A DNA stretch of 13,059 bases from Candidatus Hodarchaeota archaeon (GCA_016839785.1 JAEOTQ010000008.1:1-13059), one strand, 5' to 3'; numbered from the stretch's first letter, positions 1 to 13,059 are shown. Notes: generated from the letters alone by a model not told the origin. Program-made: numbers and translations.

Positions 1-340
1 CGATGAGTGGCAGTGTTTAAAACACACTGAGCATGTCAGAAAACCTCCACGCGTATTTATAAAACGAATACTGCTCTATCAACGGGATTTTTCTTCAAAA
101 ATACCCCAGCACTCGTTTACCATCTCATGGTTATCGTCGCCAATCCCCATGGCTTTTCGCTGATGGCAAAATGGATTCATCTTTTCGAGGTCCGTTTCGT
201 GCTTTCTTTTAAAGAAAGCATTCAGCACTTATCGGTTAGCGCGTGGCGGCCGGGCAGTACCCTTCCAGATAATCCGTAGACTAGAGGCACCCATATCCTG
301 TTCCTCTCGTCCTGAGGACACGTTCCTCTCACGAATCCAA
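1..340 (-). pseudogene. Degenerate 23S rRNA 3'-end (domain VI, H94-H101) fragment; longest copy (A) of the interspersed repeat, cut by the left window edge
   Basis: The + strand follows the reverse complement of the 23S 3' end in order: ctctatcaacggg (74-86), cttttcgagg..gtttcgtgct..gcattcagcacttatc (181-233), gcgcgtggcggccgggcag, actagaggcaccc, and tcctgttcctctcgtcctgagga (H95/SRL, archaeal GAGAGGAAC type). H94-like pairing tggattc(172-178)/gaatcca(333-339) is kept. The SRL is mutated (AGUACGAGAGG to AGGACGAGAGG) and similarity stops near 340, so this is not a functional rRNA gene. Confidence 0.8.
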
Positions 341-589
341 AAATATACTAATGCACCTTTAATAACTAAATCAGTAAATTAAACATCTAATTCAAATGAA
401 TTTCTTTGCAGAAATCATTAAATTATCCACTCATGGTTTAGAAAAATATATTTTCCTTTTACATTTAATAAAAGTGTTAATTGATATTATAGTAGTCTTA
501 AATGGTTGAAAATATACTCTAGTAGTATTAATAGACTTATGTACCGAAATACACTTTAAATAGTCTAATAAAAATGATATAACCAAGCT

Positions 590-625
590 ATACAAAGTAT
601 AAATAACACAAAGTATTTATAAGTT
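590..625 (+). promoter_or_regulatory. Putative archaeal promoter (TATA box TTTATAA at 616-622) of the TA-like operon
   Basis: TTTATAA lies about 30 bp upstream of ATG 652, the spacing expected for a leaderless archaeal transcript. It is preceded by the direct repeat acaaagtat (592-600, 608-616). Confidence 0.5.
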
Positions 626-651
626 TACATCATATGTAAAATTGAATGTGA

Positions 652-1689
652 ATGGCAAGTCAATCTACATATAATTCAAGTCAACTATTCAATGATGTAT
701 CACTAGAGATACTATTTGATTTATATCATGCAAAAAAAGCTTTAACAATATATGCGTTTGATAAGAAATACTCTTATCGCCAATATCAGTATATGTTAAA
801 AAAACTTGAATCTAATCTAATAATCAAACCTTATAAGGAAGGAAAGAAGAAGTTTTACAAGTTAAATCACTTTAATAATGAGCTGGTGAGATCAGTGCTA
901 GAAATAAAAAAGTGGGAGGAAACAAATGACCATAACGAATTTCCTCAATCCCTATCAGATGACAAAAGGTTTTTTCGAGTTCTATCCGCTCTGAAAGAAA
1001 CACATGGATGGGCTTTTACTGATACAACAGCATTACTAATATGGGCACCTTTTCTTGATCTTCAATTACCATATTTTACTGTATGTGTTAGAGATCGATA
1101 TCTAAAGAGCAAACTGGAAGAAAACTTCCCACGTTCAGTTCTTAGAGTCCAGTTACAGGCAAAGTTTTTTTCACAGGAATCAAACATCACAGACATAAAA
1201 GGTGTGCCAGTGCTGAAACCAGAAATATTAGTTCCTAGACTTTTATGTGATGAAAATACCCGAGTAAGACTTTCTTCTTTGTTCTTACTTCCATTTTTAT
1301 CACCAAGAAGAGTCCTTAAATATCAAGAAAAGAATACAAAAATATTTCCAAGTATACTGTACTTTTTATTCGCGCTAGAGAATGTACTGAATAGAGATTC
1401 GACGCTTTCTACATTCTCAAGGCAATGGTTTTATAATTTTGACCATTTTGATATGAATCTGTTGTTTTCACACTATCTACAACAGATGGGTAAAAAAAGG
1501 AAGAGCAAACTAAAGCCAACAACTTTTAAGCGGTATGAGCTTTTGAGAATAAAACAACAACTACAGTCAAATCAATGGACTGAATGGGATCGACTGGGGA
1601 TGCTTTTTCCAGACAAAACGGTAAATTTTGAACCAAGTGATCTATTGGAATTAATAATCTCCTCATCTCCCTTGCTAGCAGAGGCCTGA
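652..1689 (+). CDS. Winged-helix transcriptional regulator, AbiEi-like (type IV TA) antitoxin candidate
   Basis: 345-aa ORF. The N-terminal part is wHTH-like (YSYRQYQYMLKKLESNLIIKPYKEGKKKFYKLN). The central GWAFTDTTALLIWAP...FTVCV and IKGVPVLKPEILVPRLL segments resemble the AbiEi C-terminal domain. It lies 3 bp upstream of a nucleotidyltransferase gene. Confidence 0.6.
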   Translation: MASQSTYNSSQLFNDVSLEILFDLYHAKKALTIYAFDKKYSYRQYQYMLKKLESNLIIKPYKEGKKKFYKLNHFNNELVRSVLEIKKWEETNDHNEFPQSLSDDKRFFRVLSALKETHGWAFTDTTALLIWAPFLDLQLPYFTVCVRDRYLKSKLEENFPRSVLRVQLQAKFFSQESNITDIKGVPVLKPEILVPRLLCDENTRVRLSSLFLLPFLSPRRVLKYQEKNTKIFPSILYFLFALENVLNRDSTLSTFSRQWFYNFDHFDMNLLFSHYLQQMGKKRKSKLKPTTFKRYELLRIKQQLQSNQWTEWDRLGMLFPDKTVNFEPSDLLELIISSSPLLAEA

Positions 1690-1692
1690 AAT

Positions 1693-2346
1693 GTGAATCG
1701 TGAATTCCCACGTTACAGAGACTTTCTCACCATTCAAGAAAAACTGGAAGAAAGTTGCCCAGTTCAAGTATTTGCGATTGGTGGAACATTCCTTCAAGGA
1801 TATATCAATACAGTATTCACCAGAGACATTGATATAGTGGTTGCTATCACATCATCAGTATTAAACCCAATCGAAATACTAGATCCTGTTTTAAATGATT
1901 TAGACTTCAAACGTGTGTCAACGCTGATGGATAGTTACTTTCGGTTCGAAAAAAGTGATGGGTTAAAGCTGGACGTTTTTATCAATAAGGTCTTTATGTT
2001 CACAATAACCCCTTCTATATTATCTAGGGCTATAAATAAGAAATTATCACCTGAAGATGTTTTTCTTCTAAAAGCCCAATCAACTCGTGGATTGGATAAA
2101 GAATTTACAGATTTAAAACAGATAATCTCAAATATAACTAGAGGAAAGTTCGATTATCAAATCATTGTTGAAGAAATTACCTATCAGCTAAAAAACACTA
2201 TTACTCTCAATCCTCAAAACCTTATCAGATTATTAAAAATACTCGAAGCAATTGAACAATTGAATGAAATATTCCCAGATGAGGTACCATACGTTTTCCT
2301 CAATGAGATTGAGAGGATTTATTCTCTTCACGGAATTTTTGAATAG
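1693..2346 (+). CDS. DNA pol beta-superfamily nucleotidyltransferase, AbiEii-like toxin candidate
   Basis: 217-aa ORF with GTG start. It carries the motif VFAIGG...TRDIDIVV and a later KLDVF acidic residue, plus PEDVFLLK and TDL segments typical of AbiEii-type NTases. It is tightly coupled to the upstream wHTH gene. Confidence 0.7.
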   Translation: MNREFPRYRDFLTIQEKLEESCPVQVFAIGGTFLQGYINTVFTRDIDIVVAITSSVLNPIEILDPVLNDLDFKRVSTLMDSYFRFEKSDGLKLDVFINKVFMFTITPSILSRAINKKLSPEDVFLLKAQSTRGLDKEFTDLKQIISNITRGKFDYQIIVEEITYQLKNTITLNPQNLIRLLKILEAIEQLNEIFPDEVPYVFLNEIERIYSLHGIFE

Positions 2347-2400
2347 AGACTTTAGTAAGATGAGAAACTCACACGAAAAACGAGGGTACTAATAAAAAAA

Positions 2401-2498
2401 ACCATAAGAAAGAAGACCAGACCTCTCATCAAACACATTTTACGACTCCTGAAGGCTATTTCTTTGAGAAAACGAGAGGACTGAAAATTTCCATATGG
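2401..2498 (-). repeat. Interspersed repeat copy B (3' module only, most truncated)
   Basis: gactcctgaaggctatt-tctttgaga-aaacgagaggactgaaaatttcca matches copies C, D, F and G. It ends about 10 bp from the stop codon of ORF 2509-4275. Confidence 0.9.
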
Positions 2499-2508
2499 TC
2501 TAGAGATT

Positions 2509-4275
2509 TTAGACATTCAATACGATAAGGGCTTTTGGTCGACCTCGTTTACTCCGTTTCGGACGCTGGTAAAGGACAGAAAGGTACGGGGAAGTAATTT
2601 TTTGAATCGAGGTGATAACTGAGGAAAGACGGGGACGGAGAAGACGATTACGTAAATAGAACTTCGCTTTCTGATTACCTAAATAACGTTCTTTCTGGAC
2701 CCAGAGATCTAGCACTTCTTCTCGGGTGAAAGTAACTTTTTTCGATTGAGCATAAGCGGTCTGCAAAAGGTCTTTTATGATAATGAGATCACTAGGGGCA
2801 ATATGTGGTACCTTTGGTGGATCAGTTTCAGGGGATGTTATCTCTATTCTTTCTAAATTCAATTTAACAAGTTTTTTGTACAGATTAAGCAGTCCGTTCT
2901 TATCAGATGGATGAGATTCAAAATACAAACAATCTAAATCATCTGCCAACTGCTGACCCTGCTCAGTAGTCACTTCTTCCGAATCAGTAATAACGCCAAG
3001 TATTGCAATAGGTTTCTCTACACCTTGGACTTCCCGATAATCTTGATACCAATATTGAACAGTATCAAACGAGGCCCGATCACCTTTATCAAAGATAATA
3101 ATACACCCACTTGAGCCTTCATAATAAAAACGGCGTAACTTCCCAAAATACTCCTGGCCTGCCGTGGTATGCAAGATGAGCTTCACTTCTTGATCGTTAA
3201 CCGTAATCACCTTAGATGCAATGTCAACGCCAATTGTTGGCATATAGTTCATCGAAAAAGCCCCTTCAGCCGTGTTACGAACAAGTTGACAAATCATGTT
3301 TGTAATTCTCCCAGAAATACAAACCTTGAGCACATAGCGGTCTTTCAAACGGGCCCTGGATAAAGAAGGCACCTGAGATTGTGGAACGTCTGATCTATGA
3401 AGATGCCTGTGAATCTCTTTCTTCTTCCTCTTCTGAGTGTTTAATTCAAATTGTACGGGAGAATGTTGAACCCGATTATCTGATAATCCAAGAATTTCCA
3501 GATTAGAAAGGTTTTGGAGACTTGTGGGAGGAGAAGTTAGCGTTATATTGCCCTTCAAGAATAACCTACGGAGGTGAACTAATGAACCAAGGGAAGCTGG
3601 AAGGGAAGTAAGAGAATTATATTCCAAGGATAATTCTCTTAAATTCTTAAGGTTACCAAGGGAGTCTGGAAGTGTAACAAGCTTATTGTGACGACACCAT
3701 AACTCCTGAAGATTTTTTAACCTGCCTAGTTTTTCAGGAAGTAAGCGTAAATGGTTGTAATCTAGATCTAAGACCTTAAGGTTCAAAAGGTCCCCGAAAG
3801 AATCAGGTAAGGAAGTAAGCTGACAACGCTGTAGTTTTAAGACTTCTAAATACTTAAAGACACTAATAATCGGGGGTAAAGAACCAATATTATGCCCAAT
3901 TAATGTTAATCGCAATAAATGTTGATCTTTAATTTCTAGATTTCTAATCTTGGAATTAAGTGGAAATTCTAATTGAGAACCCAGTTCTAGTAACGCTGTG
4001 GCTTCACTAGGAATGAGAAACGAACGAAGCCAATAATTTTGGAGATACTTTGGGTGAATTTCCAACCGTTTGCATTCTTTTCCTAGAAGAAAATCGAACT
4101 GTTTTATGAATTGATAGTGGCCGGTTGAAAGTAACTCTCCGATCAATTTCTCAGAAATTGCTTCTTTAAGCTGAAAATAATTTGAAAATTCCTTAATACT
4201 TAGTGATAAGTGGCCTCCTGAATTGTTAAACTCTTGGTGTATATGTTTTAAGAGATCTGCGTGTGAAATCTCCAA
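2509..4275 (-). CDS. LRR + degenerate Rab-like GTPase fusion with putative terminal winged-helix domains
   Basis: 588 aa, TTG start with SD-like GAGGG. About 7 LRRs of 23 aa (LxxLxLxxNxLxxLPxSLG). A Rab-like domain (~3336-2860) has YMPTIGVDI and TTAGQEYFGKLRRFYYEG but no GxxxxGK[ST] or NKxD. The C-terminus is basic and ends KRGRPK. Confidence 0.85.
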   Translation of the reverse strand: MEISHADLLKHIHQEFNNSGGHLSLSIKEFSNYFQLKEAISEKLIGELLSTGHYQFIKQFDFLLGKECKRLEIHPKYLQNYWLRSFLIPSEATALLELGSQLEFPLNSKIRNLEIKDQHLLRLTLIGHNIGSLPPIISVFKYLEVLKLQRCQLTSLPDSFGDLLNLKVLDLDYNHLRLLPEKLGRLKNLQELWCRHNKLVTLPDSLGNLKNLRELSLEYNSLTSLPASLGSLVHLRRLFLKGNITLTSPPTSLQNLSNLEILGLSDNRVQHSPVQFELNTQKRKKKEIHRHLHRSDVPQSQVPSLSRARLKDRYVLKVCISGRITNMICQLVRNTAEGAFSMNYMPTIGVDIASKVITVNDQEVKLILHTTAGQEYFGKLRRFYYEGSSGCIIIFDKGDRASFDTVQYWYQDYREVQGVEKPIAILGVITDSEEVTTEQGQQLADDLDCLYFESHPSDKNGLLNLYKKLVKLNLERIEITSPETDPPKVPHIAPSDLIIIKDLLQTAYAQSKKVTFTREEVLDLWVQKERYLGNQKAKFYLRNRLLRPRLSSVITSIQKITSPYLSVLYQRPKRSKRGRPKALIVLNV

Positions 4276-4470
4276 GTTTTACCCTCTTTCAACCCTGATG
4301 GGAAAGGAATCTGTCTTATTACTATGAAATATCACAACGTTCCGACAAAATTTTTCTTGTGGTCAATGATTTACTAGAGTGACACTTCTTAGTTAAGGAG
4401 TTAACTAGAGAAAGTCTTCGCAAGTTAATGGATAAAAAGTGGGATTCAAAACGAACCAGAACTAAAAGAA

Positions 4471-4721
4471 GTGACCATCAGACATAAGATCAGAAGACTT
4501 ACCACATATACTCTATTTGACTCCTGAAGGCTATCTTACGAGAGGACTGACAATTTTCACCTTGTTTAGAAACAATAGCCCGTGAGCGAGGAGTGGTAGT
4601 GTTTAAAACACACCGAGTATGTCGGAAAACCACCACGTGTATTTCTAGTAAGAAAACTGCTCTATCAACGGGATATTTTTTAAGAAAGATCCCAGCACTC
4701 GGTTACCATCACATGGTTACC
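4471..4721 (-). repeat. Interspersed repeat copy C (3' module plus ~145 nt of 23S-like sequence)
   Basis: 4587-4719 aligns closely with 1-133 (gtgtttaaaacacac, atgtc.gaaaacc, actgctctatcaacgggat, cccagcactcg.ttaccatc.catggtta). 4471-4586 aligns with copies B, D, F and G. Confidence 0.95.
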
Positions 4722-4743
4722 AGATAACTAAACCACCTCTCAT

Positions 4744-5769
4744 CTAAATTTGTTTAATTCTAAGATGTAAGATTAGATTCTCCAGTAAGGAAGAAACCGA
4801 TAAATTAGGGATCTTACTTAAGTAAAAGCGAAGATATTCACCTTCCTGCGTTTCATAGATAAGAGGGGCAAGTCTAAACGGTTCTAGAGAACGATGAAAG
4901 ACTTCCTTGGACTGTGTTTGAACAAGCCAGTCATCGCAAGAGTCTTCATAACATTGATACCCCAGATCGAAAGTTACATGAGAAAAACCATACTCCTTCA
5001 TCCGTCGGACAAGACTCAACCCAGCTAATAATTCATGAAGCTGAAGGTCAGGGGGGATGGTTTTTAGGGTGGTCTGTAGTTCTTGGAGGGAGAGACCACT
5101 ATAAATTCTAGCACAGGGATTTAATAATGAATTTTCCGTTAGATCGAGGGTTTTTAGAGTTGGAAGGTCACCTACAACCCTCGGGATAAGCGAGAAATTA
5201 TTGTTCGCTAAAACAATACATTCGATATTGGGAAGCTGACTAAGAGTGAGGGGGAGGGTAGAAAGGCGGTTTTTCCATAATTCTAGCTCTCTTAAATTAG
5301 AGAGCTGCCCAAGCGAGTCAGGTAAGTAGTCTAACTGGTTATCGTTAAGAGCAAGGCTCGTAAGCGTCCTAAGGTGGGTAAGGGAATCAGGAAGAGAAGG
5401 GAAATTATTCGAGGATAATTTAAGCACTTCGAGTTGGGTTAGCTGACTAAAGGAATCAGGAAGGGTAGAAAGCTGATTATTATCCAATAAAAGAACCTTG
5501 AGTTTTCCAAGACATCCAATACTTGGAGGTAGTGTGGAGAGAAAATTCGAACTCAGATCTAACCATTCCAGCTCCGAAAATACCTCAAAGAAATTGGGAT
5601 GTAGTTCTAAACGGTTTTTAGATAAATTAAGTCGCTTTAAGTTAATGAAAGTTGTTATAATTTCAGGGATTGAGGTTAATTTTTCTCCCTCAAAGGAGAG
5701 CTGAACCACGCGTCCTTCCTGATCGACTCCTATTCTTCCCACCTTGAGCTGTTCTTCGTGAATCTCCAA
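4744..5769 (-). CDS. Leucine-rich repeat protein
   Basis: 341 aa, TTG start with GGAG about 10 nt upstream. About 8 canonical 23-aa LRRs (e.g. LKVLLLDNNQLSTLPDSFSQLTQ) followed by a C-terminal domain of unknown function. Confidence 0.9.
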   Translation of the reverse strand: MEIHEEQLKVGRIGVDQEGRVVQLSFEGEKLTSIPEIITTFINLKRLNLSKNRLELHPNFFEVFSELEWLDLSSNFLSTLPPSIGCLGKLKVLLLDNNQLSTLPDSFSQLTQLEVLKLSSNNFPSLPDSLTHLRTLTSLALNDNQLDYLPDSLGQLSNLRELELWKNRLSTLPLTLSQLPNIECIVLANNNFSLIPRVVGDLPTLKTLDLTENSLLNPCARIYSGLSLQELQTTLKTIPPDLQLHELLAGLSLVRRMKEYGFSHVTFDLGYQCYEDSCDDWLVQTQSKEVFHRSLEPFRLAPLIYETQEGEYLRFYLSKIPNLSVSSLLENLILHLRIKQI

Positions 5770-5795
5770 TTGTGGTATACTCCATTTATAACTTG

Positions 5796-6875
5796 CTATT
5801 CCGCATAGCCATCCTCAATAACCTTTCTAGACAGATATGTAAAAATTTCAAACGCTTGGTGCAGATCAGTGGGTTTGGACTCGAAATACTTCATGTTAAG
5901 TTGAGTGGCAAGCGCTTGGCATTCCTCAAAAGAGAGTGTTTCAGAATTCTCTTCACAGTGAGTAATTAGGCCAACTAATGCAATGGGGACATCAGGTTGG
6001 ATATACGTCTGAAATTCTTTTAGCCAGTACGGAACAGCATTGAAGGTTTGACGAGAACACTTGTCAAACAAGATTGAGGCAGCACTAGCCCCCCGATAAT
6101 AAGAGGGACGGAGTTTCCCAAAAAATTCTTGTCCTGCTGTATCAACTACGATTAATTTAACTGGAATCTCTCCTACGTTAATTTTCCTAGATCGAATATC
6201 GACTCCTAGGGTAGGCATATTATCCTGTGGGTTCTTGTATCCTACAAAAGAGTGAATAAATTTGGATTTAAGTTGAGAAACACTTCCGATGACACATATC
6301 TTAAGTAAATACGCTTGGTCGTCAAAGGAGTCCTTTCGAAGCTTCTGGATAAAGATATCACTTAATTTATCTAAGAGTGATGAATTGACAATAGAAGTTT
6401 CAAAAAGCTCTAATTTAAGATTCGCTGCAGTTTCCCGAACCATCTGTGGACTCATATAGCCAGCTTCATTCTTAATACCAAGCAGGATCACAGGAAGCGA
6501 TTTTGAAGTAAAAACCCTGAGCTCTTTCAGCCAATCCTTTAGATCCTTCACTGACTCAAGATATTCGTAATCCCATACTGAAATTGCTCCCGCAGCCTCA
6601 TGATAGAATGCCCCTTTTTTTTCACTTCCCTCTTCCGAAATATCAATAGCTAAATCAGAATACGTGAAATTAAAAGTAAAATGAAATCTTCTATACGCTA
6701 CCTCGTGAATCTCAGATATAGCTTCTTGACTCTGAAATTCTGTACTGTCATTGAGAGGACTTTCTAGTTCTGGTTGAAGAAGCTTTGCCACTAGTTCACT
6801 TGGAGTGCCAATAATGACAATCTTGTAAATATCAGCGTCGTTCCCTTGGTCAGGCATGATCAGTTCTTCTTCCAC
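5796..6875 (-). CDS. Tandem two-domain Rab/Ras-like small GTPase, P-loops degenerate
   Basis: 359 aa. Domain 1: YKIVIIG...FYHEAAGAISVWD...PVILLGIK...LFETS. Domain 2: LKICVIG...NMPTLGVDI...VDTAGQEFFGKLRPSYYRGASAASILFD...YFES. Neither has an intact GxxxxGK[ST]. Confidence 0.85.
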   Translation of the reverse strand: MEEELIMPDQGNDADIYKIVIIGTPSELVAKLLQPELESPLNDSTEFQSQEAISEIHEVAYRRFHFTFNFTYSDLAIDISEEGSEKKGAFYHEAAGAISVWDYEYLESVKDLKDWLKELRVFTSKSLPVILLGIKNEAGYMSPQMVRETAANLKLELFETSIVNSSLLDKLSDIFIQKLRKDSFDDQAYLLKICVIGSVSQLKSKFIHSFVGYKNPQDNMPTLGVDIRSRKINVGEIPVKLIVVDTAGQEFFGKLRPSYYRGASAASILFDKCSRQTFNAVPYWLKEFQTYIQPDVPIALVGLITHCEENSETLSFEECQALATQLNMKYFESKPTDLHQAFEIFTYLSRKVIEDGYAE

Positions 6876-7064
6876 TCTTGGTTATTAATTCCAGGACATA
6901 TCTGTAAGAAGATTTTTCGTTCAGTAAATCTCCCGACAAAAATCAACCAAAGATCAATAATAGGAATATCTTGGATTGTTCACAATTAAGGAGTTATCTA
7001 GAGAATCTATTCGAGAAAGAATTCACAAAAAGATAAAATTACAGAGAAATTAAGGGAAAAATAA

Positions 7065-7198
7065 GTGACCACCAGACATAAGACCAGAAAACTCACGAAC
7101 ACACACTATTAGACTCCTTAAGGCTATTATTTCTAAATAAACGAGAGGCCTGAAAATTTCCACACGGAAATTCAAAAATAGCCCGTGTGCGATGAGTG
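7065..7198 (-). repeat. Interspersed repeat copy D
   Basis: gtgacca.cagacataagaccagaa..ctca..cacactatt.gactcct.aaggctatt-atttctaaat-aaacgagaggcctgaaaatttccac..aatagcccgtgtgcgatgagtg matches the other copies. Confidence 0.95.
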
Positions 7199-7395
7199 AC
7201 TGGCTGCTCCGCTTTTATTCAAGACCTCTCTACTTAATGTTTATTTTGGTGAAAGGGAAAAAATAAGAATTTAAGATTGAGAGTCTCGTGTAGATGTGGT
7301 GGATATATTTAACCAGCTGAATTTCTTTCAAAATGGGTTTATGACCCATTCACTTCTTTTTCCATCCTTATCTTGATAGATAGCTTCTTGAATAA

Positions 7396-7671
7396 CTAGT
7401 TCTTCATAGATTCGAATTCTGTCTTACGATATGTCATCACCCAAAAATACATCGCAAGGATGACGAGCATAACAACACAAAAAATTATAAATCCTAGTAG
7501 AAGACCCTGTGTCTGATTTATGTCGTTAATAATTATTCCAAAACCCAGAGTTACCAGTAGTACCGCAATCACACCAACTATCTTTAGAATTGGTGGGAGA
7601 GGCGCAAGAATTCCTACCAAGCTTAATATGATTTTGACAAACCAGTTTTCCTTTGAAGGTGTCTCATTCAT
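7396..7671 (-). CDS. Small membrane protein with 2-3 TM helices, function unknown
   Basis: 91 aa. ATG is preceded by a strong SD (GAGGTGA). Hydrophobic segments IVGVIAVLLVTLGFGIII and GLLLGFIIFCVVMLVILAMYFWV. It is the only credible ORF between repeats D and E. Confidence 0.7.
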   Translation of the reverse strand: MNETPSKENWFVKIILSLVGILAPLPPILKIVGVIAVLLVTLGFGIIINDINQTQGLLLGFIIFCVVMLVILAMYFWVMTYRKTEFESMKN

Positions 7672-7859
7672 ATTATCACCTCATTTTCGAGTTGAAACAT
7701 TACTGTAGTTTTAACAGATTGTATTTTGTATTTGCTTAGTTTTTTGCAACAATTTCTCACAAAATTAAAGCAAATTTTTTAGGAGAGGTTGTTATTTTTA
7801 AGATTTACTAAGTAAGATTTTTCATTTCAAATAATCGGACACAATTGCAGAGTACTAAA

Positions 7860-8055
7860 GACCATTATACTCAAGTTACTCACTCTTTTACGCTTCCTGG
7901 AAGCTATTTCTCCTATAACACGAGAAGATTGACCCTTTCCACTTTTCTAAATAGAAGTAGCCCGTGTGCGATTAGTGATAGTGTCTAATGCACACTGAGC
8001 ATGTCGGAAAACCACTACGCGTATTTTCTTATAGAAGACTGTTCTATCAACGGGA
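7860..8055 (-). repeat. Interspersed repeat copy E (more diverged 3' module plus ~95 nt of 23S-like sequence)
   Basis: aagctattt..acgagaagattgaccctttccac..tagcccgtgtgcgattagtg..cacactgagcatgtcggaaaaccactacgcgtattt..actgttctatcaacggga aligns with copies A and C. Confidence 0.92.
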
Positions 8056-8558
8056 GGTTTTAAAGACAGAGGAGCTTAAACTAATGGTTACAAATGCGGC
8101 AAATGCATTAAGAAAGAGAAGAAATATAGTAATTGTCGGAGTGTAAAGACGGAGAAGTTCTGGCCGACCAAGGACAGAGCGACCCAGAACCTCACTAAAA
8201 ATTGTAAAATCAAAAAACTTAAGACGGACGTACCATAAAGGAAGGAGGGGATCAATATCACTGGTGACATGAAAGGGAAAAGACAAGAAATGGGTGAGAT
8301 CAAGGTTTAAGACTGACAATAGAGAGAGAACAAGGATTATCGAAAAGATCAGCAAGTGAAGGAGAAAACGAAAGCGAGAAAACACTGATGTAAACTTCGT
8401 TGTCCCAAGATTCCAGATAAGAAACCCAAAAGCCATACTTAGCAACATAGAAATTTATCTCCCTGAAACAGAATTTGGTGAATGCAATAATAACCCTCAT
8501 AAGCCCTGAACGCTCTTTAAACACATCTGTAAGACTCTTTGAAGAAGTTTTTCCATTT

Positions 8559-11264
8559 TTACATTCTAGATTTAGACCGTTTAAGCACCATTAAATTAAA
8601 CAAGACGATAAAAACAATTAGGAAAGATAATCCATTAGCTGATGAGGGAGAAGCAATACTGATGGGGCCCACATAAACGGAAGTACTAAGCTCAGTATCA
8701 CTAGCAACAACCAATAAATAATAGGTTCCGGGAGTTAGAGTAGAGAGAGCCCAAATATATGAAGATTCTTGATAATTAGATACTATTTGTATCCACGAAC
8801 TATTATCATTGCTATAGTAAATACTGAAATAGAGGGAATCACGAAGATTTGGATCTGATGCTTCCCAAGAAATTATAATCTCCTTGGAATATTCGTTATT
8901 AACTTTTGGTGTCAGAATAGTAAGTTCAGGAGCATAATTATTAGCGATCTGAATCTGTATAACTTCTGTTACTGTAGAAGTGTCATCTGAAACCATAAAT
9001 CTTAGATAGTATATTCCATTATTTAATTCGGAGATACGCCATAAATATTGTGTTCCAGAATTAGAAACAACCAAGGGGTACCATACGACTTGATCTGAAC
9101 TATAATGAATGTCAACGAGAATTAGATCATTCTCTACATCATTAGTTGACCATTGAATTTGAATCTCGTCAGAAAAGCTCGAATAACTAAAGGGACTGGA
9201 TATTGTAAGAGTGGGGGGGATGTTTTGATTATGGATATCAATTAAAAATATTGAGGATGTGAAATCTCCACACCAAATTTCAAGAGAATAAGCACCGTCA
9301 GAGAAAAGTGTTGTATCTAGATCATAGTCAAACTCAGAGAGGTTTTCTGCAATTGATATCGAATGAGAACCATTCATCAAATAGAGATTGAAAAAACAAT
9401 CTGAAATTTCTCCACCTGTAAGGTTCCATCTAATATTGACTGTATCTATCCAAAAGGAATTAGTTAATGTCAATAAGTCGATAACAGGCATCATAAGCGA
9501 AATCGGATAGGTTTTTTGCCCAAGAGATTCCCAGACTACAACATCTGAAATATCTTTTATGGCAAGGAGGGAGTTAACGGAGGTTTTATCATAGAAATCT
9601 TTGGGAACTGTAAAATTTGAATAGAAAAATCCAGGCCTAGTTAGGGATTCAATAGTATCACCTGTTTCTTCAGCCCAAAAAAAAGGAAACGAAGTAGTGT
9701 TATACCATTCAATTATTGGATAATAGGTTGCATCTGGGAATACAAAAAGACATGAAGCAAGTAAATCGGTAGAATTCGAATCCCTCCAAATAACAAAACA
9801 TCCAAGTGAGTTATCAGTGAAGAGTGATGAGTCGTTGGTTAATTCAAGGTCATAAGACATTGAATAGATAGTGCAATTTGTAAAAAAAACATTAGAATGA
9901 TCTAACAACAAATCAAAATCAATGACACTATTAATAAACGAGGCATTGGAATTAGTAATAACAGTTTCATCAATACCTACATCGACGAGTGTTATATTGG
10001 AGGAAGAAGAATCAGTTATAAAAAATGAATTAATATCAACTGTATCTAAATATAGAGAGAAATTACTGCAATTAAAATTCACAATATTAGGAGTACTAGT
10101 AGAAGTACTTAAAATAGTTACATTAGACCCGTGGAGAGTCAGTTGTGGGATGGTTGAAGTATGCTGTAGCTCAAGAATAACATCAGCATTATTTATATCA
10201 GAATCTCCACCGATGTCAAAATTAGATATTTCTACAGTTGAATTCTCAATCAAGACACTTAAAACATAAGTATTATGGTCTGAATAACCCGAAAAAATCG
10301 AATCCTGGATAACAATGAAACCGCGAAGTTCAATTGTATCAATTACAACAATGGATCTCATACAGGAAAAATTGTCGATATTAGGGGAAGTAGTGGTTGT
10401 GCTTGAGAGAGTCACATTCGAATCATCAAGTGTTATTTGAGGAATATAGGAAGAGGGTTGTAACTCTAACACCACATTAGAATCAGAAATTTCTGTTATT
10501 CCATCGATTTCAAGATCAAAAACGGCTACAGTTGAATTCTCAATTAAAACACTAGCAACATTAGAGAAATAGTCAGCTAAACCAAAGAAAATTGAATCTT
10601 GAATAACTAAAGACCCCAAGAGCTGAATAGTATCAATCGAAATATTTGATTTGTAACATGACAAATCATTGATATTAGGAGAACTAGTAGTAGAACTAAA
10701 AAAAGTCGCATTGGAATTAATAATCGTCATTTGGGGGGTATTAGAGAAGTACAACAGCTCGAGAAGCACGTCGGAATCGACTATTTGACTTACTCCATTA
10801 ATCACTATAACACTAAAATTTACTGAAGAATTGCTTATATAAAGAAAGTTAATATCAGGAGCACTGGATGTACTCGAACTAGCGACATCTATTTCGGAAT
10901 TAATTGTAGTAAAATTGGAAATTATTGAAAAATAATCCAAATTTCCCTGAAGTAATGAATTTCCATAGACTGAACAGGTCCCTGTTAAATCTAATTTTAT
11001 AAACCGAAACTCAGAATTTGACTCGACAAGCACACTAGTTTCTACTGTGACACTAGAAGCATCTACGGTCAAAGTACCTCCATTTCTAACTATTATGCTG
11101 TTGTAAGTCTCAACAGTCGAAATTGTTATTGATTCATTATCAACTATTAGATCAGGACTAGCTACAACTATAATACTCAGGTTAGAAGTAATTATCGGGA
11201 ATATTACTATGACAAGGAGAACCTTAATTCCCATAATTTTAGCCAAAATTCCATCCTCAAACAA
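8559..11264 (-). CDS. Large cell-surface protein: signal peptide, beta-solenoid-like repeats, Ig-like domains, C-terminal TM anchor
   Basis: 901 aa; the real start may be the ATG at 11234. It has an N-terminal hydrophobic segment, a Ser/Thr/Asn/Ile-rich repeat region with many N-x-S/T sequons, about 3 Ig/FN3-like units (PTLTISSP...IQIQWSTND; PELTILTP...IIISWEASD) and a C-terminal GLSFLIVFIVLFNLMVL-KRSKSR anchor. Confidence 0.85.
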   Translation of the reverse strand: MFEDGILAKIMGIKVLLVIVIFPIITSNLSIIVVASPDLIVDNESITISTVETYNSIIVRNGGTLTVDASSVTVETSVLVESNSEFRFIKLDLTGTCSVYGNSLLQGNLDYFSIISNFTTINSEIDVASSSTSSAPDINFLYISNSSVNFSVIVINGVSQIVDSDVLLELLYFSNTPQMTIINSNATFFSSTTSSPNINDLSCYKSNISIDTIQLLGSLVIQDSIFFGLADYFSNVASVLIENSTVAVFDLEIDGITEISDSNVVLELQPSSYIPQITLDDSNVTLSSTTTTSPNIDNFSCMRSIVVIDTIELRGFIVIQDSIFSGYSDHNTYVLSVLIENSTVEISNFDIGGDSDINNADVILELQHTSTIPQLTLHGSNVTILSTSTSTPNIVNFNCSNFSLYLDTVDINSFFITDSSSSNITLVDVGIDETVITNSNASFINSVIDFDLLLDHSNVFFTNCTIYSMSYDLELTNDSSLFTDNSLGCFVIWRDSNSTDLLASCLFVFPDATYYPIIEWYNTTSFPFFWAEETGDTIESLTRPGFFYSNFTVPKDFYDKTSVNSLLAIKDISDVVVWESLGQKTYPISLMMPVIDLLTLTNSFWIDTVNIRWNLTGGEISDCFFNLYLMNGSHSISIAENLSEFDYDLDTTLFSDGAYSLEIWCGDFTSSIFLIDIHNQNIPPTLTISSPFSYSSFSDEIQIQWSTNDVENDLILVDIHYSSDQVVWYPLVVSNSGTQYLWRISELNNGIYYLRFMVSDDTSTVTEVIQIQIANNYAPELTILTPKVNNEYSKEIIISWEASDPNLRDSLYFSIYYSNDNSSWIQIVSNYQESSYIWALSTLTPGTYYLLVVASDTELSTSVYVGPISIASPSSANGLSFLIVFIVLFNLMVLKRSKSRM
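10060..10810 (-). repeat. Intragenic 294-bp (98-aa) repeat, about 2.5 units
   Basis: ttagg (PN motif) at 10087, 10381 and 10675, and ctacagttgaattctcaat at 10232 and 10526, both recur with an exact 294-bp period. Confidence 0.85.
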
Positions 11265-11371
11265 AGGTTACATTGAATTGATAAGTCAAATTGTTAATAC
11301 TCTATAAAAAATATTGGAATTCTCCAATTAATACTGTTTTCAGATTTCCACTTTTTTCCCTCAAAGGTAAA

Positions 11372-11498
11372 ATGACTATCAGAAATAAAACCAGAAGACT
11401 CATCTACACACTATGTACGACTCTTTGAGGCTATTACTTAGAAGTAAACGAGAGGACTGACAATTTCCACACGGTTAGCCCTTGTGAGAGGAGTGGTA
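11372..11498 (-). repeat. Interspersed repeat copy F
   Basis: tgactatcagaaataaaaccagaagactca..cacactat..gactctttgaggctatt-acttagaagt-aaacgagaggactgacaatttccacacgg-ttagccc..gaggagtggta matches the other copies. Confidence 0.93.
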
Positions 11499-11574
11499 AT
11501 TGACTGAACCAGCCTGTTTTTAAGAGGAGAGAATTAACTAAATGATGGATTATCCAGAAGAAACACACACATAC

Positions 11575-12819
11575 TCACATTGCCAGCAATCTATCAATAT
11601 CTGATTGTGTTATCTCTTTGGGATCCAAATTTCTAACCAAATCTCGAATGATTCGAATTTGAGCTTCAGTCAGATTTGCAGGGAGTTTAATATCGTAATC
11701 TGCCCCTAAAAGTTCGGAAGTAGTGAAAGGTATTCGAATATTGAAATCTAGTTCTTCAAATTGCTCATATACCATCACAGTTTTGGTAATATAGGATTGA
11801 GCATTCACCATTTCTTTGAGAATTATTTCTTTTTTGGCTTGGGACTGAAGTAAATTTCGAATCTGCTTAACGAAAATCGTTAAGTTAGAATAGAAATTGT
11901 CCGGAAAATAATTATACTTAGGATGTTGCAGTATTACTTTTTTCTGTGGAGGAGAACGTATCGTAAATGCAAGTGTAAAATTATTTCTTTTATCAGGAGA
12001 ATCAGGATTTGCAGTTGCAAAACCAAAAGCAAGGATAGCACATCTCTCAAATTTTTCTCTTTGTACCCGTGCAAATATAATCCTTCCACAAGTTGGGCAT
12101 AAAGTTTGTTCATCAGTTACGAATTCAAATTCAAAGCGGCTAGGTATGATCTGATCAAGGTTTAATCCAGTTCCCACTAATCCAGTTCCAGAAAACACTC
12201 GCTCTGCAAGATTTTTAGAATTTTTTTGAGGAAAACGATTGTTAAAAGTATCCAACATTGGAATAGGGCCAGTACCATGAGAGAAAAACGACAAAAGCGA
12301 ACCATAAGAGAGTTCATCCATTCTTTTCTCAGCTTCAAGGTTAGGAATTCGGTGTATTTCGGCTTCCATCGCTTGAATCACCTTTTCTTGCAATTTGTAT
12401 TCAGTTATCGTTTTAATATCAGGATAGGTTTGTGCTGCATTGGGATATGCCAAATTAATATGTGAGAGAAGAATTTGTTCATTGAAATCGGGCTGATAGC
12501 GGGTTTGTAGCCCCCTCAGAAAATTTTTGAGGAAAATGAGCTGGATCAAACCACCTCTGTCAGAGGGATAAGAAATTGGAGAATGATTACTTGAGTGAAG
12601 CTCTTTCTGCTCAGTATGACGTCGCATGATAGTCTTGATAGAATTTTCCTTAACCCCAGTAATTTCCTGGATTTCTGAGTAAGTAAAGCCTAAACTTACA
12701 AAATAAACAATAATTAAATGTTTGATACGCATTTGAGCCATAGGTTGGGCAAGAAATTGTTTAATCAAATCATCATTCAAATCAAATAAAATCATCAAAA
12801 TCGAGAGTAAATATGACAT
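11575..12819 (-). CDS. Hypothetical protein with N-terminal HTH and a CxxC motif
   Basis: 414 aa. LGFTYSEIQEITGVKENSIKTIMRR resembles a sigma-70 region 4/LuxR-type HTH, and there is a CPTCG knuckle. No catalytic motif was recognised. Confidence 0.7.
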   Translation of the reverse strand: MSYLLSILMILFDLNDDLIKQFLAQPMAQMRIKHLIIVYFVSLGFTYSEIQEITGVKENSIKTIMRRHTEQKELHSSNHSPISYPSDRGGLIQLIFLKNFLRGLQTRYQPDFNEQILLSHINLAYPNAAQTYPDIKTITEYKLQEKVIQAMEAEIHRIPNLEAEKRMDELSYGSLLSFFSHGTGPIPMLDTFNNRFPQKNSKNLAERVFSGTGLVGTGLNLDQIIPSRFEFEFVTDEQTLCPTCGRIIFARVQREKFERCAILAFGFATANPDSPDKRNNFTLAFTIRSPPQKKVILQHPKYNYFPDNFYSNLTIFVKQIRNLLQSQAKKEIILKEMVNAQSYITKTVMVYEQFEELDFNIRIPFTTSELLGADYDIKLPANLTEAQIRIIRDLVRNLDPKEITQSDIDRLLAM

Positions 12820-12883
12820 GATATATTATCAAGGTTTCGAAATGAAACCATGTCAACTGTCTGTTGACTTCAAATTAAACTCT

Positions 12884-13007
12884 ATCAAAAACCCTCCACA
12901 CACTCCAGGTGGCTCCTTAAGGCTTTTTTTCTAATTATTTGAAATAAACGAGAGGCCTGACAATTTCCACACTAATTTCAGATTAATAGCCCGTGCGCGA
13001 GGAGCGG
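12884..13007 (-). repeat. Interspersed repeat copy G
   Basis: cacacact..ggctccttaaggcttt..ttatttgaaataaacgagaggcctgacaatttccacac-taatttcagatt-aatagcccgtgcgcgaggagcgg matches the other copies. Confidence 0.92.
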
Positions 13008-13059
13008 GAGCTTGCTGAAAAATATAATTTCATGGCATTTGATTATATTTCGAATGAAA

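Follow-up and report, generated by a model that had tools for sequence, protein, structure and literature searches.

Copies of the 23S rRNA tail in a Candidatus Hodarchaeota contig suggest a hot spot of gene insertion at the 23S rRNA gene end

The window analysed here is a whole contig of 13,059 nucleotides from a Candidatus Hodarchaeota archaeon. It is composed of blocks of one or two genes with copies of the rRNA operon tail between them, all tails being co-oriented. The window is probably (roughly 60%) part of an additive island of gene cassettes that has the 3' end of the archaeon's rRNA operon as its anchor. The evidence set out below speaks for a hot spot of gene insertion where the 23S rRNA gene ends rather than for reverse transcription. 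Such arrays of 23S tails were not found described in the literature searched.

Repeat copies in the window

Seven copies of the repeat were located by a profile search, using a 454-position profile built on a full-length copy. All are on the minus strand and lie where the first-pass annotation had placed seven repeats. Coordinates are window positions.

Copy A, 1..345, minus: profile 12-321, E 1.7e-100; displaced 3' fragment of 23S rRNA that opens with domain VI, shortly ahead of the sarcin-ricin loop, and extends in the direction of the 23S end; truncated by the contig end
Copy B, 2400..2516, minus: profile 326-452, E 1.9e-18; trailer alone, essentially without a 23S part
Copy C, 4473..4721, minus: profile 213-452, E 1.5e-51; last 120-145 nt of 23S plus full trailer
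Copy D, 7067..7229, minus: profile 281-452, E 5.7e-34; standard unit, last ∼30 nt of 23S plus trailer
Copy E, 7857..8097, minus: profile 246-433 for 8061-7857, E 1.1e-32; 23S part of ∼90-125 nt, one hairpin of which is replaced, and trailer with a diverged terminal motif; reaches ∼8097 by a GTAACCAT match to 23S
Copy F, 11374..11514, minus: profile 294-452, E 1.7e-26; standard unit
Copy G, 12866..13019, minus: profile 300-444, E 1.4e-25; standard unit with diverged terminal part; adjoins the contig end

The repeats reproduce the final part of the 23S rRNA gene together with its ∼115-nt 3' trailer. The rRNA-like part proposed earlier is genuine. Over 284 nt, copy A and the true 23S gene of a relative (G005) are 75% identical; the sarcin-ricin loop of copy A reads GGACGAGAGG vs GTACGAGAGG in relatives. 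An Rfam search of the window itself returned nothing; a sister of copy A in the same genome (G000:C106, 799-1128), 90% identical to it, was called LSU_rRNA_archaea 2721-2973 with 131 bits, the call also given to long copies. The lengths of 23S that the first-pass annotation had assigned to each copy were roughly right, and its common 3' end was recovered in copies B, C, D and F, which end within 2 nt of the reported 2401, 4471, 7065 and 11372. The ends of E and G had been described as less clear, and the terminal part is diverged in both. A repeat search found no inverted repeats of at least 30 nt in the window.

The 3' edge of the repeat

The repeat consists of the last ∼30 nt of the 23S gene, the 3' strand of its processing stem and a terminal motif, followed by a T-run; some copies retain more of 23S, at most all of domain VI. 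In G005 and G008, the repeat matches the true 23S gene with its trailer. The terminal motif can base-pair with the leader that precedes the 16S gene (G002:C88, G008:C9), and two clades differ in this pairing by matching changes on both strands. The median computed duplex energy with the G002 leader was −27.4 kcal/mol over 56 copies, vs −12.1 kcal/mol for shuffles, with 91% of the copies below the shuffles' 5th percentile. For the window copies, values of −20.5 kcal/mol (terminal part of copy B with the G002 leader) and, with the leader, −32.6 (copy C), −31.5 (copy D) and −24.1 kcal/mol (copy F) were computed. A run of at least 4 T within 25 nt past the edge was present in 55 of 75 copies, compared with 23.5% of random 25-mers. 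The trailer of G019 and G015 matches the 23S leader in inverted orientation. Judged from the leader-pairing motif and the T-run after it, the shared 3' edge is the predicted functional end of the rRNA operon transcript.

Position of the arrays

On contig G008:C8 the array begins directly behind the end of the true 23S gene and comprises 21 co-oriented copies in 51 kb. On both G005:C44 and G016:C95 a copy lies 3.6-4.3 kb behind the true 23S gene. All three genomes have a true 23S gene with an intact tail and, after it, displaced partial copies in the same direction, the arrangement expected when DNA inserts within a stable-RNA gene, in its 3' part, and the gene is regenerated; for the window's own genome (G000) this arrangement is presumed. 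The rRNA operon of G000 is unassembled, so the linkage of its contigs to the 23S gene is drawn from the relatives. The freshest case is that of G005: the duplication begins ∼30-50 nt short of the 23S end and stops exactly at the T-run, with 85.9% identity over 184 nt. Copies near the true 23S gene of G008 are no more similar to it than distant copies, and there is thus no age gradient.

The survey was extended by profile search to 135 copies on 27 contigs of 10 genomes. All copies are co-oriented within each contig, and a direct repeat of the target's 3' fragment stands at the far end of each block (135 copies, 7 of them in the window). This distribution bears on the idea that the tail itself is mobile, as a small non-autonomous rRNA-trailer element spread between resident genes. 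The standard unit is indeed uniform in size (∼150 nt), as such an element would be. The copies of G000 are, however, concentrated and co-oriented on few multi-copy contigs (26 strong matches on 6 contigs, with 2 weak single matches elsewhere); the array of at least 35 kb on G004:C196, which ends at 78,861, is followed by 38 kb with no copy; and the blocks that move between genomes include cargo. A mobile tail is accordingly hardly credible.

Ends of the copies

The 5' starts of 83 of the 135 copies lie at profile 280-339 (∼30 nt before the 23S end), 33 of these in the bin 300-309. A further 19 start at profile 4-15, the start of domain VI, and the remainder are scattered between. Overall the starts span ∼380 profile positions. 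The terminal motif (profile ≥440) is reached by 82 copies and missed by 53. After exclusion of 5 copies cut by contig ends and 2 that are first halves of composite copies, 46 true 3' truncations remained among 128 assessable copies, so the 3' edge is not strictly fixed. About one third of copies are cut on the 3' side or internally deleted. The pattern described by the first-pass annotation, variable 5' truncation with a constant 3' end, therefore stands in that most copies share the 3' end, and needs amending for the 3' truncations, the clustered 5' starts and the internal deletions.

Unrelated cargo adjoins the preferred 5' junction points. An orthologous module with its cargo is 92-100% identical between G000:C106 and G002:C65; at ∼300-304 one of the two genomes has cargo joined to it, the other 23S sequence. 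In three composite copies, 23S sequence is fused to profile 303-311. A second family (G016) has the same preference, 7 of its 15 extra copies starting 10-23 nt before the 23S end (the true gene and one leader-side match were left out of the 15). Junctions are clustered with a spread of ∼10-15 nt, which fits later small deletions and an imprecise mechanism equally.

The ends also speak against target-primed reverse transcription, in which an rRNA-derived RNA would be copied from a fixed 3' end with variable 5' truncation. This was the first of two options offered by the first-pass annotation, and it would account for a 3' end common to most copies and a variable 5' extent. The copies do not form an unbroken gradation of 5' truncations with an unchanging 3' end, scattered over dispersed sites: their starts are clustered, 3'-truncated and internally deleted copies are common, and all are restricted to one co-oriented array behind the 23S gene, with promoter-bearing genes in both directions between them. 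A search for reverse transcriptase genes, suggested in the same annotation, gave no RVT_1 match in G000, although only 84.5% of this genome is covered by the completeness estimate. We give retro-insertion almost no credence.

Plain duplication and decay, with local unequal crossing-over or slippage, old neighbours as intervening genes and ends set by neutral deletions, would explain the frequent internal deletions and both-side truncations. The GC content of array contigs (36.8%) also equals that of the genome (36.1%). Such a process is nevertheless very unlikely: the starts are clustered and not uniform, the terminal motif is kept in 82 of 135 copies while starts span ∼380 positions, cargo varies among close relatives, and the same cargo is found beside different neighbours. 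Equal raggedness of both ends had been named beforehand as the sign of ordinary deletion decay. Both ends are ragged to a degree and decay is real, but it is superimposed on insertion and is no substitute for it.

Cargo genes and their exchange between genomes

The following blocks lie between the copies of the window.

Cargo 1, 652..2346, plus: 345-aa ORF without Pfam family (652-1689) and 217-aa DUF2204 nucleotidyltransferase (1693-2346), both running against the rRNA sense
Cargo 2, 2509..4275, minus: 588-aa LRR and Ras/Roc GTPase protein (Pfam Ras 9.6e-27, LRR_14 1.2e-16)
Cargo 3, 4744..6875, minus: 341-aa LRR protein (4744-5769; LRR_8 3.5e-23) and 359-aa Ras/Roc GTPase (5796-6875; Ras 7e-37)
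Cargo 4, 7396..7671, minus: 91-aa ORF, no family match
Segment conserved as one unit with copy E, 8038..8442, minus: 86% identity to G002:C79 6424-6828; overlapped by a 133-aa ORF (8047-8448) of doubtful reality
Cargo 5, 8559..11310, minus: 901-aa ORF without significant family; own TATA-like promoter region at ∼11265-11310
Cargo 6, 11575..12819, minus: 414-aa ORF, no family match

In G002 the unit with the segment at 8038..8442 comes after a proper repeat copy and is thus a cassette of its own. Across arrays, cargo blocks hold 1-3 genes, in either direction and with their own promoters, and their content varies among close relatives. Cargo 1 and its junction with copy A are kept in G023:C70 (81% over window 71-1382), and cargo 5 has an 80% identical counterpart at G004:C158 302-3062, flanked there by other repeat copies. 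In total, 57 inter-genome blocks of at least 400 nt were found in shuffled order, and shared cargo genes have different cassettes as neighbours from genome to genome. G002 and G023 have two blocks in common at 92-94% identity overall, most 40-nt windows in cargo being 90-100% identical; between these blocks lie 1.6 kb vs 6.5 kb of differing cassettes. No free circular cassette was seen, viral contigs giving no matches and metagenome matches being short linear contigs.

The recent breakpoints between G002 and G023 lie at several places in the module (∼283-290, 300-304, 380-387), at edges of conserved stretches, and homologous recombination therefore fits them as well as a site-specific enzyme does. 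It is conceivable, if unlikely, that recombination alone made the arrays, the rRNA tail being merely portable homology through which strains swap cassettes via the 23S gene or any tail copy, with no site-preferring insertion; such swapping has been put forward for hypervariable regions flanked by rRNA genes. This would agree with the lack of a dedicated enzyme among the genes found and with the SAR11 hypervariable region, which according to the accessible text of its report likewise lies between rRNA genes (10.64898/2026.04.03.716430). Recombination alone cannot make the first tail duplication, nor non-homologous junctions of cargo and tail clustered at 280-339 and 4-15, and the same preferred junction recurs in the second family.

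Search for an insertion enzyme

No genes for reverse transcriptase, integrase, serine recombinase, Cas1 or LAGLIDADG proteins were found on any array contig examined. All PF00589 matches in G000, G002, G004, G008, G022 and G023 are on non-array contigs, and all matches to PF14528, PF00239 and PF01867 likewise fall on contigs other than arrays. Among 48 ORFs of at least 80 aa on 7 array contigs of G000 no recombinase or nuclease domain was found, with the near-exception of a 142-aa ERCC4-domain ORF on G000:C63. The ORFs that precede the rRNA operon in G008 and G002 contain no recombinase domain. Neither an integrase gene within the island beside an att site nor an intI tyrosine recombinase with attI beside the array was found. 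As no cassette encodes a recombinase, the insertion enzyme would act in trans. Each of the 6 genomes searched has a single tyrosine recombinase with a strong match (E ∼1e-46 to 1e-49), which we take to be XerA-like and which is one candidate for such an enzyme.

A nuclease encoded elsewhere might act instead, in the manner of intron-less homing: it would cut the 23S tail, and a donor with a cut-resistant tail plus cargo would repair the break. Preferred yet slightly ragged junctions and the lack of an integrase would suit this scheme, which we nonetheless regard as doubtful. LAGLIDADG_3 had no match on the array contigs of 5 genomes searched, so that no such endonuclease gene lies in or beside an inserted block there; most of its matches fall in ORFs >800 aa, and no candidate target-site difference was found between functional and displaced tails.

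Proposed course of insertion

On the cassette-island reading, an inserted block would comprise a replacement module followed by cargo and would enter a resident module, preferably ∼30 nt before the 23S end and less often where domain VI starts. A working tail would thus be preserved in the rRNA operon, and the old tail, truncated at its 5' end, would be displaced downstream. To restore function, an incoming block would have to bring rRNA sequence up to a certain point, and the fixed 3' edge may be that point. Modules could later serve as portable homology, through which recombination would shuffle cassettes, and deletions that shorten copies would produce most of the spread in 5' ends. This corresponds to the second option of the first-pass annotation, repeated cargo insertion by integrating DNA through which an RNA gene regains its 3' end, which gains support from the functional 3' edge, the copies behind true 23S genes and the shared cargo. 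Several points count against it: no recombinase or nuclease was found for the insertion step, and the ragged junctions are not exact to the nucleotide. The G002/G023 breakpoints, the 3' truncations, the lack of an age gradient in G008, the unassembled operon of G000 and the lack of a circular cassette weigh in the same direction.

Comparison with known systems

Eukaryotic 28S rDNA harbours R1/R2-type non-LTR retrotransposons, which insert specifically into the large-subunit rRNA gene and leave 5'-truncated copies with a constant 3' end; they encode reverse transcriptase and interrupt the rRNA gene. Here, in contrast, no reverse transcriptase was found, the rRNA tail is duplicated and the cargo consists of unrelated cellular-type genes.

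Tycheposons of Prochlorococcus reportedly build up islands as cargo modules insert one after another at RNA genes, some of these modules lacking a recombinase; they are said to target tRNA genes, with tyrosine or serine recombinases in complete elements. The arrays resemble them as probable islands built from serial cargo-module insertion at RNA genes and differ in that no complete recombinase-bearing element was seen.

With integrons the arrays share an ordered, co-oriented series of small cassettes without their own recombinase, each bounded by a recombination-site-like repeat. Unlike integrons, they have no adjacent intI, their repeats are rRNA-tail copies and not attC hairpins, and their cargo genes run in either direction from their own promoters.

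SAR11 HVR2 is a large hypervariable region between the 23S and 5S rRNA genes and resembles the arrays in placing accessory genes directly behind the 16S-23S genes. It is bacterial and bounded by tRNA genes, and the accessible text reports no repeated rRNA-tail copies (10.64898/2026.04.03.716430).

Additive flexible or tandem islands at tRNA/tmRNA genes are described, in the accessible parts of the sources, for Alteromonas (PMC4898812) and under the Islander principle (PMC4383910). In comparison with these, the target here is a 23S rRNA gene with its operon processing trailer and not a tRNA gene, the repeat measures 150-450 nt vs tens of nt, no integrase was found in the arrays examined, an array holds at least 20 cassettes and the host is an Asgard archaeon. 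As in those islands, cassettes pile up behind an RNA gene that remains intact, a direct repeat of the gene's 3' part marks each addition, and cassette content varies among close relatives.

Repeat copies in the window

The 13,059-nt window makes up the entire contig C5, which belongs to a genome bin of 248 contigs that is 84.5% complete (G000); the genomes compared with it are numbered G001 to G023, and contigs are given as genome:contig. The host is an archaeon, the archaeal LSU model being the best-scoring one for the 23S genes of same-genus genomes. The window's genes include LRR and Ras/Roc GTPase proteins, and the direct repeats between genes on the - strand were confirmed with a repeat finder and by multiple alignment. 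A repeat profile of 454 positions was derived from a full-length copy on G023:C70. Searching with this profile returned seven copies at E-values of 2e-18 to 2e-100, and both ends of the contig are repeat copies.

Repeat copies in the window (window coordinates, strand, profile positions)
Copy A: 345-1, - strand, profile 12-321, cut by the contig end
Copy B: 2516-2400, - strand, profile 326-452
Copy C: 4721-4473, - strand, profile 213-452
Copy D: 7229-7067, - strand, profile 281-452
Copy E: 8061-7857, - strand, profile 246-433, terminal part diverged
Copy F: 11514-11374, - strand, profile 294-452
Copy G: 13019-12866, - strand, profile 300-444, terminal part diverged

An eighth, degenerate copy spotted by eye at 8470-8545 was discarded, the profile giving nothing there even at E-values up to 10. 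No tRNA was found in the window.

Identity of the repeat

An Rfam search of the window, copy A included, returned no family match, and the rRNA identity was therefore taken from relatives and from a sister of copy A on G000:C106. This sister is 90% identical to copy A and was assigned by Rfam to LSU_rRNA_archaea positions 2721-2973; equivalent isolated fragments in G008 and G011 received the same call. Copy A itself shares 75% identity with the true 23S 3' end of G005 across 284 nt. Set against the true genes in G005 and in G008, all copies have in common the last ∼30 nt of the 23S gene and ∼115 nt of 3' trailer.

Two 23S genes had features of their own. The full-length 23S gene on G001:C57 is only ∼73% identical to copy A over 126 nt and its trailer is unrelated to the repeats, whereas other contigs of G001 hold typical fragments; it may be a contaminant of that bin. 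The 23S gene of G008 (G008:C8) carries an insertion of ∼385 nt, ∼130-510 nt from the contig end in the rRNA sense and ∼60 nt short of the domain VI junction, which is absent from the G005 gene, holds no long ORF and looks like an rRNA intron.

The 3' edge and pre-rRNA helices

By their complementarity to leaders and spacer, the conserved trailer motifs are the 3' strands of pre-rRNA helices. In G002:C88, the spacer immediately before the 5' end of the 23S gene is complementary to the trailer stretch GTCAGTCCTCTCGT...AGCCTTAAGGAGTC, and the trailer and 23S leader of G019 and G015 align as inverted matches of 54-58 nt. The last conserved trailer motif reads CTTCTGRTCTTATGTCTG in the window's clade and TTCGGTCTGATGTCTG in that of G008. 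It complements a leader motif that lies, in G002:C88 (∼3278-3308) and G008:C9 (∼4100-4125), 130-230 nt ahead of the 16S gene; partners in the window are, for example, at 4473-4495 and 7067-7090. Between the two clades, this last motif and the leader motif differ by matching changes on both strands. In G001:C38 this leader motif immediately precedes the 23S gene.

For the 56 end-reaching copies of the window's clade, the duplex with the G002 leader had a median energy of −27.4 kcal/mol against −12.1 kcal/mol for shuffles, and 91% of these copies fell below the 5th percentile of the shuffles. A T-run of at least 4, a putative archaeal terminator, followed within 25 nt of the edge in 55 of 75 copies, compared with 23.5% of random 25-mers from the same contigs. 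Leader pairing and T-run together indicate that the fixed 3' edge is, as judged from sequence, the functional end of the rRNA operon transcript. The pairing of trailer and leader suggests a helix that would close the whole 16S-23S primary transcript.

Distribution of starts and ends

Starts and ends were tabulated for 135 copies on 27 contigs of 10 genomes, the contigs having been chosen because earlier searches had found copies there. Orientation was uniform within each contig for all 135 copies. Starts fell at profile positions 4-15 (19 copies, two of them true genes), 48 (1), 144-165 (4), 201-251 (18), 280-339 (83, of which 33 in the 300-309 bin) and 340 or beyond (10). Ends lay at position 440 or later in 82 copies and earlier in 53; the early ends comprise 5 cuts by contig ends, 2 first halves of composite copies and 46 real truncations. 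Many of the 46 truncations lie directly after CCTCTCGT (∼372-386) or after GGAGTC (∼400-412), and the terminal motif came directly next to an early-ending copy in one case only.

The first-pass annotation had described a constant 3' end with variable 5' truncation. The ends of copies B, C, D and F lie within 2 nt of where it had placed them; across the larger sample, the 46 real 3' truncations limit the constancy of that end. The asymmetry between the two ends is real, but the 5' ends do not form a truncation series: their starts are clustered, and the copies divide into a standard unit of ∼150 nt, a long form of ∼440 nt from the start of domain VI, and deletion derivatives. Ordinary deletion decay was seen directly and accounts for much of the 5'-end spread. 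The same cargo is followed by a copy from position 155 in G022:C159 and by one with the same start and ∼177-320 deleted in G000:C33, and in three copies 23S sequence is joined directly to positions 303-311.

Location and extent of the arrays

The contig end of G008:C8 cuts through the true 23S gene, behind which 21 partial copies, all co-oriented, extend over 51 kb; an age gradient was looked for along this array and none was seen. In G005:C44 the true tail is followed after 3.6 kb by a copy that is 85.9% identical to it over 184 nt. The likeness sets in ∼30-50 nt ahead of the 23S end and stops exactly at the T-run, past which the sequences are unrelated. On G004:C196 the array occupies the stretch between the contig end (113,639) and 78,861, and the following 38 kb hold no copy. 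The distal flank of this array had no counterpart in the examined regions of G008, G010 and G011, and therefore defines no conserved array end.

G000 has 26 strong matches on six contigs and a 23S fragment on C63, with 2 weak single matches elsewhere. Its rRNA genes are unassembled, and the linkage of its arrays to the 23S gene is therefore drawn by analogy with relatives. Tail matches were found in 17 of the 22 genomes of the genus (for example 17 in G021 and 9 in G003). G016, from a second family, gave 17 matches, co-oriented on each contig with several tail copies, and their starts cluster 10-23 nt before its 23S end. No tail arrays were found in the closed genome G019 or in G015, of a third family. 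G010:C1 is listed as a single contig and contains 100-N gaps at 2,886,539-2,886,638 and 2,247,055-2,247,154, exactly at the expected 23S and 16S sites, and no 23S match was obtained in G010; given these gaps it is a scaffold, from which the linkage of array and rRNA genes cannot be read.

Cargo genes and blocks shared between genomes

Each stretch between two copies contains one to three genes, which run in either direction. On the array contigs of G000, seven in number (C5, C33, C106, C16, C117, C239 and C63), there are 48 ORFs of at least 80 aa, ∼21 of them without a Pfam family; the others include Ras/Roc GTPases, LRR, Kelch, WD40, fn3 and transglutaminase-like proteins, nitroreductase, aldehyde:ferredoxin oxidoreductase, a ParE/RHH pair, HSP20 and a CAAX protease. 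The G008 array contributes further families, among them methyltransferases, beta-helix proteins and AbiEii. Ras-family matches number 54 across G000, and 4 Ras genes lie on the array contigs, which make up 1.6% of the genome, a roughly four- to five-fold excess in small numbers.

Several cassettes were traced in other genomes. The gene for a 901-aa protein in the window is 80% identical to a gene on G004:C158, where the homology extends from a TATA-like box, right behind a different tail copy, to just past the stop codon; behind the homologue comes a tail copy whose profile start is position 212. G023:C70 preserves copy A together with the junction to its cargo, and copy E with segment 8038-8442 forms a separate cassette in G002:C79. 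G000:C106 and G002:C65 have an orthologous tail and downstream cargo in common, and this stretch is joined at ∼300-304 to an unrelated gene in one of the two genomes, in the other to 23S sequence.

Across the fetched arrays, 57 inter-genome blocks of at least 400 nt were found in shuffled order. Two blocks are common to G002 and G023. Their overall identity is 92-94%, and within the cargo most 40-nt windows reach 90-100%; the cassettes lying between these blocks differ and amount to 1.6 kb versus 6.5 kb. Block breakpoints fall inside tail copies, at ∼283-290, 300-304 and 380-387.

Other features of the window's cargo were recorded. A putative ORF of 133 aa at 8047-8448 overlaps the 23S-derived part of copy E; the segment it lies in is 86% identical to G002:C79 6424-6828. 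At 652-2346 a 345-aa ORF without a family is followed, 3 nt behind, by a DUF2204 nucleotidyltransferase; the pair is kept together with copy A in G023:C70, and its layout looks like that of a toxin-antitoxin or defence pair. The regions upstream of two GTPase cassettes (4340-4440 and 6863-7010) have motifs in common, and a single stretch of G004:C158 (3325-3474) matches the two of them; duplication of the paralogous GTPase genes seems to have included these upstream regions.

Enzymes, free forms and mechanism

The first-pass annotation had offered retro-insertion of an rRNA-derived RNA or repeated insertion of cargo at variable points within the element as explanations. Insertion by reverse transcription is not supported: RVT_1 had no match in G000 (84.5% complete), and the starts are clustered. 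Insertion with regeneration of the end of an RNA gene is supported by the movement of cargo, the position behind the true 23S gene and the clustered junctions. The observation as a whole is partly confirmed.

Searches for recombinases covered several genomes. Each of six genomes has one strong tyrosine-recombinase match (E ∼1e-46 to 1e-49), and all tyrosine-recombinase matches in these six lie off the array contigs, as do all LAGLIDADG_3 matches in five genomes, which are mostly within very long ORFs. Of 22 genomes, 8 have serine recombinases and 3 have Cas1, in all cases away from the array contigs. No recombinase domain was seen in the ORFs that precede the rRNA operon in G008 and in G002. 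The freshest insertion, in G005, carries a Schlafen AlbA_2 protein along with two unknowns. In the arrays of G000 a single nuclease-like cargo gene was seen, a 142-aa ORF with an ERCC4 domain on G000:C63 (L012:2332-2757; E 6.9e-6, just above the Pfam cut-off).

In a search for free forms on viruses or plasmids, two module motifs gave 0 matches in viral contigs. A metagenome scan returned 76 loci, 12 with real units, all on short linear contigs. Public reads were examined as Logan contigs from three runs of one study at a depth of ∼4-5. The joints listed there connect different copies with short sides (20-36 nt); they probably represent cross-matches among the many tail copies of the sample and not excision products.

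The arrays fit an additive cassette island at the end of an RNA gene. An incoming block, consisting of a replacement tail followed by cargo, would enter the resident tail at a preferred point; the operon would keep a working end, and the displaced old tail would become the next 5'-truncated copy. The edge would be fixed because such a block must bring rRNA sequence through to the end of the closing helix and the terminator. Clustered non-homologous junctions with many unrelated cargos count for a site-preferring step, as do the same junction in the second family (G016) and the case of G000:C106 and G002:C65. The junctions are ragged by 10-15 nt; this raggedness, the breakpoints inside the module and the negative enzyme searches leave room for a nuclease-plus-repair mechanism, and point to homologous recombination that reshuffles the array afterwards. 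A 150-nt target-site duplication by staggered cuts was also considered. It agrees with the two sharp edges in G005 but not with how little the first displaced copy in G008 resembles the true tail, and was rejected.

A further reading, to which we assign a chance of roughly one in four, is an integrase-less form of gene capture in Asgard archaea. The recombination site would be the single rRNA operon's 3' processing module, a host factor would insert blocks of tail and cargo at a defined point ∼30 nt before the 23S end, and the arrays of tens of cassettes would be a main point of entry and shuffling for accessory genes. The host factor could be the tyrosine recombinase with one strong match per searched genome, or an undescribed nuclease.

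Significance and comparison with known systems

The cargo includes families counted among the eukaryotic signature proteins; if the further reading is true, the arrays would also take in and shuffle eukaryote-like signalling families (Ras/Roc GTPases, LRR, Kelch, WD40). The arrays break short-read assemblies at the rRNA locus, and the displaced 23S fragments can be misread as rRNA genes.

Islands built up by insertions at tRNA gene ends are textbook knowledge. Among described systems, the closest are the additive flexible genomic islands and tandem islands at tRNA and tmRNA genes, from which the present arrays differ in their rRNA target, in a long repeat tied to pre-rRNA processing, in their size and in having no integrases seen within them. 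What is new is the tail of an rRNA operon as island site, with repeats of 150-450 nt, at least 20 cassettes and no integrase in sight. No description of rRNA-tail arrays was found in the literature passages searched. The word rRNA was absent by term search from a review of archaeal tyrosine recombinases (PMC8371274), and the portions covered of the Asgard mobile-element literature held nothing alike (PMC8813620, PMC11529989, 10.1101/2025.07.27.667033). A positional analogue is the hypervariable region that SAR11 has behind its 23S gene, for which the portion covered reports no tail repeats (10.64898/2026.04.03.716430). By this comparison, the rRNA-tail arrays would represent a known island principle in altered form, with a proposed mechanism.
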